64,000 nt of DNA, taken from NCBI GenBank assembly GCA_963733915.1, contig CAVTEP010000001.1:671710-735709 (forward strand), read 5' to 3'. The stretch comes from Candidatus Sulfomarinibacteraceae bacterium (lineage in GTDB: Bacteria > Acidobacteriota > Thermoanaerobaculia > Thermoanaerobaculales > Sulfomarinibacteraceae). Shown piece after piece: positions 34,862 to 35,228 of the stretch. Made by a program: the position numbers and the translations under genes. The notes under the pieces were generated by a model, which saw only the letters and a list, made by a program, of their open reading frames with translations, did not search any database and was not told the origin of the DNA. Numbering within the stretch: position 1 is the stretch's first letter; each line of letters starts with the position of its first letter.

Positions 34862-35228
34862 AACGTTAAAACGTTAGAACGTTTGGCTCATCTGGAATTG
34901 CATGCGATCGGGGTTTTGAAGTTCAGGTCAACAGGCGCAGCGACCGCGACAGACCGCAGCGGCAGGGTCAGAGAGCAGCGGCCGCGACAGCGGCCGGGGC
35001 AGCGAGCGAGGGTCGCCGGTCCGTCCGGATCCTGTCACTGTGGACTGCCCCTGACGCGGCCTCCAGCTGCTGACGCTGTCCGTTCCACCGTCCTTGACAG
35101 CCGTTTCAGACGGTTTCGTGGAGGGGTGGGTGGTCTCCTTTTCCCGCTATTCCCCTCTCTCCTTTTCCCCTTTCCCCCTCTGCCACTCGAGGGCGGGTGG
35201 GTGGAACGTTCTAACGTTCTAACGTTAT
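34857..35228 (+). repeat. E14: composite nested element (~372 bp), colinear homologue of E10; spans exactly from the purF stop to the cysQ-like stop
   Basis: Left arm cgttgaaacgttaaaacgttagaacgttt (34857-34885), then ggctcatctgga as in E10. Module ~34937-35084. A ccttttcc-type arm at 35130-35180. gagggcgggtgggtgg (35189-35204). Right arm aacgttctaacgttctaacgtt (35205-35226). Confidence 0.85.
34937..35084 (+). repeat. GC-rich inner module, copy C
   Basis: gcagcgaccgcgacagaccgcagcggcagggtcagagagcagcggccg..ggggcagcgagcg..gtcactgtggactgcccctgacgcggcctccagctgctgacgctgtccg. Confidence 0.75.

Follow-up and report, generated by a model that had tools for sequence, protein, structure and literature searches.

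Four Intergenic Copies of a GC-Rich Module

A stretch of 64,000 nucleotides (hereafter the window; 63% GC) on contig CAVTEP010000001.1 of a Candidatus Sulfomarinibacteraceae bacterium carries a GC-rich module in four copies, here called c1 to c4, each of which lies between genes. c1 is located between the 3′ end of a gene for a 233-aa protein and the start of an OPT transporter gene and is antisense to these two, which are on the minus strand. c2 occupies the 414-nt gap that separates a PCMT gene from a class-II glutamine amidotransferase gene, all three being on the plus strand, c3 lies between the 3′ ends of this amidotransferase gene and a convergent gene of the inositol-monophosphatase family (3′(2′),5′-bisphosphate nucleotidase), and c4 between the convergent genes for a threonine aldolase (-) and a 164-aa protein (+). 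The copies c2, c3 and c4 are sense to the upstream gene, whose end precedes the module by 90–130 nt. A preliminary description of this DNA had called all copies intergenic, which agrees with the Pfam assignments and synteny of the flanking genes and with independent Joint Genome Institute (JGI) gene calls on orthologous contigs, where the module is gene-free.

Two sequence blocks characterize the module. Block 1 (GGCAGGGTC N4 AGCAGCGGCCG) is present exactly at 25762, 33138 and 34961, with 0.01 matches expected in shuffled sequences, and block 2 (CTGTGGACTGCCCCTGACGCGG) at 25817 (+), 35038 (+) and 44995 (-), with no match in 100 shuffles. Each block is exact in three of the four copies and diverged in the fourth, with about five changes for block 1 in c4 and about four for block 2 in c2, as judged by eye against the sequences. 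A window scan with an nhmmer profile and a covariance model (R1) identified exactly these four loci; the copy count refers to the window plus ~140 kb of sequence from relatives. The four copies and the blocks common to them, as claimed in the preliminary description, were thus confirmed at the places it gave, with none expected by chance. The limits it had drawn were too narrow, since homology covers 200–230 nt and reaches ~40 nt further on either side. The paralogs are ~70% identical pairwise, with 70–89% identity in the arms and 55–69% in the centre. The same elements are found in the independent assemblies L002, L015, L016, L018, L019 and L028, which rules out an assembly artefact. A cyanobacterial origin was considered and rejected, as the HIP1 motif (GCGATCGC) is not enriched in the window. 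Going by the sources of its protein matches, this is ordinary chromosomal DNA of an uncultured member of the Acidobacteriota of the Thermoanaerobaculales type.

Several observations bear on coding potential. The indels between paralogs include lengths that are not a multiple of three, the changes in block 2 are mostly non-synonymous (by eye), and no start or stop is consistent across the copies in any frame. The concatenated six-frame peptides of all copies had no relatives in 5.8 billion predicted proteins. A 158-aa open reading frame (ORF) across c3 was considered as coding and rejected, having no relatives among 1.84 billion representative proteins. The module is non-coding, in line with the earlier view that the short ORFs crossing it share peptides only because the DNA is repeated.

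The preliminary description had also recognized no Rfam family in the module and proposed a cmscan search. This search agreed with it: no match to Rfam 15 was obtained at gathering thresholds in the whole window and, when E values up to 5 were admitted in the region 25000–46000, the sole match inside the module was to a miRNA precursor in c1, with 21 bits against a gathering threshold of 70. No tRNA or transfer-messenger RNA was detected in the window with ARAGORN. Among the 18 window ORFs scanned no transposase domain was found, and none of these ORFs is a Y1 transposase; viral, plasmid and phage collections gave no matches except a low-complexity one of 64 nt.

Blocks 1 and 2 Are the Arms of One Hairpin

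The two blocks are the arms of a single long imperfect hairpin, in which CAGAGGCAGGGTCAGAGAGCAGCGGC pairs with GCTGTCGCTGTGGACTGCCCCTG and encloses a variable centre that is 57–69% identical among copies and contains indels; an outer helix and a small 3′ stem-loop complete the fold. The internal inverted repeats listed in the preliminary description are real, but ggggcag..ctgcccc is present only in c2 and c3, and the pairing that is conserved is that of block 1 with block 2. A covariation test, which had been proposed as a check, gave a mixed outcome. Standard pairs are formed in 94% of the cells across the four paralogs and three orthologues, compared to 26–57% when the partner strand is slid, but double changes occur in only 2 of the 38 pairs, one of them being a GC-to-AU switch that marks the c4 lineage. 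The covariation score was reached by 5 of 500 shuffles, with only four independent paralogs. The helix formed by blocks 1 and 2 is real and has been kept. In c2, the alignment read by eye suggests a different stem, CUGGAG/CUCCAG, in place of the small 3′ stem GCGGU/ACCGC.

The profile also finds its own copies on their reverse strand (c4, E 5e-9), and the consensus core folds with -35.4 kcal/mol compared to -34.8 kcal/mol on the opposite strand, a strand asymmetry that is not significant. The pairing evidence is silent on whether the helix matters as RNA or as DNA.

Three Copies Lie at the Apex of Composite Gene-End Hairpins

Around the module, the window contains ~20 intergenic hairpins of one design (manual count), in which a tandem array of 7–8 nt units is followed by a C-rich box (C-box; CCACCC...), a short loop, a G-rich box (G-box; GGGTGGGTGG-like) and the complementary array. 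These arrays often begin at or inside stop codons, and hairpins of this kind stand at many gene ends of the lineage. At four such sites the short loop is replaced by the 200–230 nt GC-rich imperfect palindrome, whose conserved blocks are its own arms. Six of the simple hairpins of the window were folded; five gave -38 to -65 kcal/mol (z -6.6 to -9.1) and one -31 kcal/mol (z -2.3).

In c1, c3 and c4 the module sits at the apex of a composite hairpin of 370–420 nt and fills the gap between the arms, which are 279–321 nt apart compared to 5–58 nt in the simple hairpins. The outer arrays of these three copies are 88–96% complementary, in addition to the inverted ends of the module itself, and the composites fold with -180, -166 and -186 kcal/mol (z -6.6, -2.8 and -5.2), respectively. 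c2 has a C-box on one side and a G-box on the other, but there is no complementarity between the arrays that flank it. The order on the right-hand side is common to c1, c3 and c4 and consists of a G-box, a CCTTTTC-type array, a box CTCTGCCnCnnGAGGGnGGGnGG (X) and a AACGTTCT array; the X box (CTCTGCC..GAGGG) was seen only beside module copies. The AAAATCCG array that follows c2 is also present in c4. These shared right-hand modules, together with the occurrence of the c2 array in c4, make the family a mosaic. The positions of all parts are given in Table 1.

The repeat unit differs from site to site (GAGTTTT, AATTCTC, AATTAGG, TTAGAACG, GAAAAGGA, CTGGATG and others) while the arms stay complementary, and the G-boxes of the gene-end hairpins have a composition of the G-quadruplex type. 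A further large-loop hairpin of this design, at 36233–36458, is bounded on the left by AATTAGG/AATTGGG arrays with a C-box, and on the right by a G-box and ATTCCGA-type arrays; its payload of ~130 nt is unrelated to the module, and 44 nt of it are conserved (84%) in L028, where the flanking genes are ~98% identical. At 44116–44250, downstream of an ORF that ends at 44118, a C-box precedes a GAAAAGGA array and a G-box precedes a CCTTTTCC array, an order that would allow two mutually exclusive pairings, box with box or array with array, as in an attenuator. The 5′ half of the module in c3 (34936–35004) is weakly periodic, with Tandem Repeats Finder (TRF) periods of 12 and 19 and recurring CAGCGRC-like units; from this periodicity, the GC-rich module may be an old degenerate array-armed hairpin, not a foreign insert.

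No description of array-armed G-box hairpins was found in the literature searched, either for Acidobacteria or elsewhere. The TAACTGA direct repeats of Beggiatoaceae, considered as a possible match, were judged to be different on the portion of that paper available to us.

Table 1. Coordinates of the module copies, of the parts of their composite elements, and of related or compared sites (positions in the window unless a contig is named).
Feature	Position	Strand	Evidence or remarks
c1 module	25691..25900	+	nhmmer E 1.6e-52; R1 136.8 bits; orthologues L018, L019
c1 whole composite hairpin	25643..26005	+	arms 88% complementary, 279 nt apart; fold -180.2 kcal/mol, z -6.6
c1 left array TTAGAACG	25643-25678	+	
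c1 G-box	25905-25919	+	followed by CCTTTTCT array
c1 terminator-like site	25905-25928	+	flagged by terminator prediction
c1 X plus G-box	25949-25971	+	
c1 AACGTTCT array	25972-26005	+	
c2 module	33067..33299	+	nhmmer E 8e-60; R1 123.2 bits; orthologue L015:1390-1620
c2 left C-box GCCACCCC	~33028-33035	+	
c2 right side, G-box GGTGGGTGG and AAATCCG x4 array	33307..33346	+	sequence, TRF
c3 module	34896..35113	+	nhmmer E 7e-58; R1 140.8 bits at 34938-35091; orthologue L028:6268-6421(-)
c3 left outer arm, AACGTT-type 8-nt tandem array, overlapping the amidotransferase stop codon	34854..34883	+	TRF; inverted relative to 35205-35226, 95% complementary, 321 nt apart
c3 degenerate C-box TGGCTCATCTGGAA	34884-34897	+	
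c3 block 1 (GGCAGGGTCAGAGAGCAGCGGCCG), hairpin 5′ arm	34961..34984	+	exact match; pairs with block 2, consensus helices 2-3
c3 block 2 (CTGTGGACTGCCCCTGACGCGGCCTCCA), hairpin 3′ arm and start of small 3′ stem-loop	35038..35065	+	exact match; GCGGY/RCYGC stem
c3 right side of composite	35120..35226	+	sequence, TRF
c3 G-box GGAGGGGTGGGTGG	35120-35133	+	
c3 C/U-rich array	35134-35181	+	folds with G-box to terminator-like hairpin, -19 kcal/mol
c3 X plus second G-box CTCTGCCACTCGAGGGCGGGTGGGTGG	35178-35204	+	
c3 AACGTTCT array	35205-35226	+	
c4 module	44925..45141	-	nhmmer E 3e-65; R1 164.2 bits; orthologues L002:11098-11314, L016:4741-4957
c4 whole composite	44786..45195	-	arms 89-96% complementary, 281-285 nt apart; fold -186.4 kcal/mol, z -5.2
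c4 GGAGAAAA array	45195-45161	- (element orientation)	
c4 C-box	45160-45143	-	
c4 G-box	44924-44909	-	followed by AAAATCCG units
c4 CCTTTTCC array	44879-44845	-	
c4 X plus G-box	44846-44821	-	
c4 AACGTWCT array	44820-44786	-	
Other gene-end hairpins (among others)	13300-13417, 17813-17912, 18976-19106, 20875-20985, 22797-22912, 44142-44243, 53956-54058, 54383-54500, 56071-56179, 62370-62472		
Gene-end hairpins in relatives	L003:1743-1868, 2183-2288, 11043-11154, 13913-14028; L020:9637-9734, 16273-16433		
Compared sites, c1	25593-26007 vs L020:9639-9788		
Compared sites, c3	34850-35230 vs L015:3183-3300		
Compared sites, c4	44790-45194 vs L003:11045-11148		

Orthologous Copies, Site Turnover and Local Constraint

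Close strains were reached via protein clusters at ≥90% identity, and orthologous copies were found at all four sites: c1 in L018 and L019, c2 in L015, c3 in L028 and c4 in L002 and L016. The module is absent from other relatives at the same places. L015, whose amidotransferase gene is 98.8% identical to that of the window and which has c2, carries at the c3 site a different, module-free hairpin of 118 nt with GTTAAGAG arrays. L013 and L014 (at least 90% protein identity) have only ~55 nt and no module at the place of c2. The c1 site of L020 and L023 carries a CCCCTGC-array hairpin, and the c4 site of L003 (81% protein identity) a GAGTTTT-array hairpin. Wherever the module is missing, a different hairpin is present, and the repeat units of the relatives are entirely different, so that neither a clean empty site nor a target duplication could be reconstructed. 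On comparison of these sites, the hairpins turn over far faster than the surrounding genes, possibly by cassette replacement or by in-situ rewriting. Array copy numbers were also seen to differ among close strains.

The search in related genomes that the preliminary description had proposed was productive for close strains only: the scan of the ~140 kb from relatives with R1 detected no copies beyond the orthologues, and the module was not found in ~100 kb sampled from relatives at 80–90% protein identity.

The c4 copy was informative on constraint. Its module differs from that of L002 at 2 of 221 positions, compared to 66 of 1044 positions and 46 of 348 third codon positions in the threonine aldolase gene (Fisher test against the module, 4e-4 and 1e-8, respectively), and the gene on the other side is 80–97% identical per 100-nt bin. 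This conservation suggests purifying selection on c4. In c3 compared to L028, the blocks are intact and the 3′ tail has about five changes in ~40 nt (five in the 50-nt bin 35050–35099), with flanks ~98% identical; intact blocks beside a changed tail indicate that constraint falls mainly on the block 1/block 2 helix. None of the orthologues inspected has a change in either block, and the remaining orthologue pairs are too similar to be informative.

Wider searches of genome, metagenome, viral, plasmid and phage collections yielded no convincing relative of the module. A genome-collection scan for CTGYGGACTGCCCCTGRMGCG gave one match, in L001, which lies inside a coding region of a proteobacterial metagenome-assembled genome and was judged to be due to chance. 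Of nine matches in a metagenome scan for GGACTGCCCCTGNNGCGNNCTCCA, eight are in coding regions and chance-like by eye. The ninth (L005:534-589; soil metagenome contig Ga0207687_10341905) is an intergenic 50-nt hairpin, GCAGAGGCAGGG-N19-GGACTGCCCCTGCC, upstream of a gene that we take to be ffh from its predicted N-terminus. This hairpin repeats the sequence of the module's inner helix, is matched by R1 equally on both strands (only 17.6 bits, E 0.14) and has no Rfam match; it may have arisen by chance convergence, or an unrelated GC-rich bacterium may carry a minimal relative.

Adjoining c4, the region 46302–53951 looks like an alternative complex III (Act) operon, an ordinary cluster with genes for a multihaem cytochrome c7-like protein, a 1131-aa molybdopterin/4Fe-4S fusion, an NrfD-like protein, an ActD-like protein and a cytochrome c, whose order is kept in L002, L003 and L016 and which is of use in placing the lineage.

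Transcription Signals

A promoter scan detected no sigma-70-like promoter near any copy. On the sense strand, the G-box folds with the C/U-rich array that follows it into a hairpin with a U-rich tail (-13 to -25 kcal/mol), both in c1, c3 and c4 and in all their orthologues. c2 lacks such a terminator-like 3′ end and runs into the amidotransferase gene. As whole elements, c1, c2 and c3 fold better on the sense strand by 10–16 kcal/mol, and c4 folds equally on both strands.

Discussion

With moderate confidence, we read the module as the conserved apical hairpin of a small family of species-restricted mosaic extragenic palindromes that probably acts as a transcript-end hairpin. It is probably a structural repeat at gene ends similar to repetitive extragenic palindromes (REPs) and bacterial interspersed mosaic elements (BIMEs) or to miniature inverted-repeat transposable elements (MITEs). 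The preliminary description had proposed a small structured RNA or a MITE core. This was correct insofar as a repeated non-coding hairpin lies at the centre of larger inverted-repeat elements; MITE membership was not supported, as neither a target-site duplication nor a clean empty site was found, nor a transposase among the 18 ORFs scanned, and the paralogs are ~30% diverged.

The four copies could have arisen from an old duplication of, or recombination between, gene-end hairpin elements, with the shared boxes and arrays as the junctions. From their ~70% identity, the mosaic order of their modules and their fixed orthologous positions in one species, we infer that the copies are old and that the family is not actively transposing. 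The element would be read through from the upstream gene, as fits the orientation of c2, c3 and c4, and its RNA would form a very long, interrupted hairpin, with the G-box/CCUUUUC stem and a U-rich tail closing it at the 3′ side. Such a structure at the transcript end could serve termination or insulation between neighbouring genes, protection from 3′ exonucleases, or both, and the invariant block 1/block 2 helix with its bulges might offer a protein-binding surface. We propose that the element has been retained for its long hairpin, which would serve as a transcript-end structure, most plausibly in RNA produced by read-through.

A number of observations weigh against this interpretation. The covariation signal is close to the minimum that is detectable, and the folding of the core alone is unimpressive (z-scores -0.4 to -3.3). 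The conservation of c4 could instead reflect a recent recombination tract, and the 3′ tail of c3 has changed relative to L028 between flanks that are nearly identical. Read-through from upstream is unable to explain c1, which is antisense to both of its neighbours, and the role at the RNA level is itself one that we infer.

The same evidence can be read in other ways. A family of small RNA (sRNA) genes, stand-alone or derived from a 3′ untranslated region (3′-UTR), with a sense transcript of ~200–250 nt that ends at the G-box/CCUUUUC hairpin and acts in trans, would account for the hairpin conserved with few compensatory changes and for the alternative 3′ stem of c2. It would also fit the better sense-strand fold of the whole elements in c1–c3, the terminator-like hairpin that immediately follows the module in c1, c3 and c4 and in their orthologues, a c4 core much more conserved than the flanking coding sequence, and blocks that are unchanged in all orthologues inspected. 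We nevertheless consider it unlikely: no copy is preceded by a sigma-70-like promoter, the core on its own folds with similar energy on either strand, double changes affect two pairs only and Rfam gave no match. In addition, c2 has no terminator-like end, the module always lies inside a larger inverted repeat, as is usual for repeats, it is lost or replaced at the c3 site of L015 next to a gene 98.8% identical, and it was not found in the ~100 kb sampled from relatives at 80–90% protein identity. We are similarly doubtful that the module is a functional RNA under selection, of ~200–250 nt, stand-alone or 3′-UTR-derived and ending at the G-box/CCUUUUC terminator, that belongs to one Thermoanaerobaculia-like species and is embedded in a lineage-wide system of gene-end hairpins with arms rewritten yet complementary. 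Arms that are rewritten between strains and stay complementary would imply a templated mechanism that makes or exchanges them.

That the module is a non-autonomous mobile element, a MITE or a derivative of an IS110/IS200-type insertion sequence (IS) that inserts into the loops of array-armed hairpins, the arms being recognition sites of the transposase, appears quite improbable to us. Three of the four copies do sit exactly at the apex of an otherwise short-looped type of hairpin, close strains differ in the presence of the module at the c3 site, as relatives do at every site, the module itself ends in inverted repeats, and copies occur in both orientations and in all kinds of intergenic context. 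However, there is no target-site duplication at the outer or inner boundaries of any copy, where the arrays abut or overlap stop codons, and module-free sites carry a different array and loop where a clean empty site would be expected. Copies that are ~30% diverged and fixed at orthologous positions are also unlike a recently active family, the 18 ORFs scanned include no transposase, and the viral, plasmid and phage collections gave no match but the low-complexity one. A derivative of an IS110-type bridge RNA was also considered, but no boundaries of the element could be defined. Finally, the palindrome and the G-boxes could be a binding or structural site in duplex or extruded DNA, for instance for a nucleoid protein or a recombinase, or as a G-quadruplex (G4) or a cruciform, and transcription would be irrelevant. 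The almost strand-symmetric folding of the core and the invariance of blocks of 12–22 nt despite 30% overall divergence point in this direction, and G-boxes such as GGGTGGGTGG have the classic G4-forming composition. We regard this as very unlikely, as there is no specific indication of a binding protein, the stems contain many G-U (G-T) positions that are compatible with one strand only, and the position at stop codons and the U-rich tails suit the 3′ ends of RNA better.

Taken alone, the module is a modest find, a species-restricted repeated hairpin of a kind that is often mistaken for an sRNA gene, and its recognition as a repeat spares a false non-coding RNA annotation. The hairpin system around it is the more unusual observation. 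In this uncultured acidobacterial lineage, many gene ends appear to be marked by long array-armed hairpins built on G-rich boxes, a few of which carry a conserved GC-rich payload, and the repeat unit changes between strains whose flanking genes are 98–99% identical. Should these elements prove to define the ends of transcripts, they would represent an unusual way to achieve termination or insulation in a genome of 63% GC, and also a tractable case for how palindromic repeats arise and stay symmetric.

Comparison With Known Systems

The module resembles REP/BIME, BOX and NIME-type mosaic repeats and, in part, MITEs, but does not fit fully into any of these classes and is unrelated in sequence to every family described. 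With the REPs and BIMEs of enterobacteria and pseudomonads, including the REPIN doublets, it shares an extragenic location as imperfect palindromes at gene ends (seen for all copies), also between convergent genes, a mosaic association of units with other short motifs, stem pairing that is kept, and proposed roles in termination and in the protection of mRNA 3′ ends. REPs are, however, 20–40 nt and REPINs ~100 nt long, whereas here a palindrome of 200–230 nt lies in an element of 370–420 nt. They usually occur in hundreds of near-identical copies tied to a REP-associated tyrosine transposase (RAYT), whereas we found four copies in 64 kb that are ~70% identical; a short unit in tens to hundreds of copies was not seen in the window or in the ~140 kb from relatives. 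We know of no REP counterpart of the site-specific heptamer or octamer array arms beside G-rich boxes.

Pneumococcal BOX elements (boxA-[boxB]n-boxC) and the neisserial intergenic mosaic (NIME) and Correia elements resemble the present family in being modular and intergenic, in having a tandem sub-module of variable number and a strong predicted structure, and in differing among strains. They have no sequence relationship to the module. In BOX the tandem module is central, whereas here the tandem arrays are the outer inverted arms and a unique GC-rich module is central, and Correia elements have defined terminal inverted repeats and a TA target duplication, neither of which was seen here. Terminal inverted repeats in the sense of MITEs are present in c1, c3 and c4, and c2 has no complementary outer arms; a target-site duplication and a clean empty site were found at none of the four sites. 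Minisatellite-linked MITEs, such as the Porphyromonas gingivalis element as presented in the available part of its description (PMC4596501), are likewise non-coding inverted-repeat elements with tandem repeats, but of the features that define MITEs, neither a target-site duplication nor a clean empty site nor a related autonomous IS was seen in the present family.

The composite hairpin exceeds the stem of an intrinsic (Rho-independent) terminator in length by an order of magnitude, and in the simple array hairpins a U-rich array precedes the G/C-rich stem and an A-rich array follows it. What the family has in common with intrinsic terminators and 3′-UTR-derived sRNAs is a G/C-rich stem with a U-rich tract 3′ of the module in c1, c3 and c4, and a start at stop codons.

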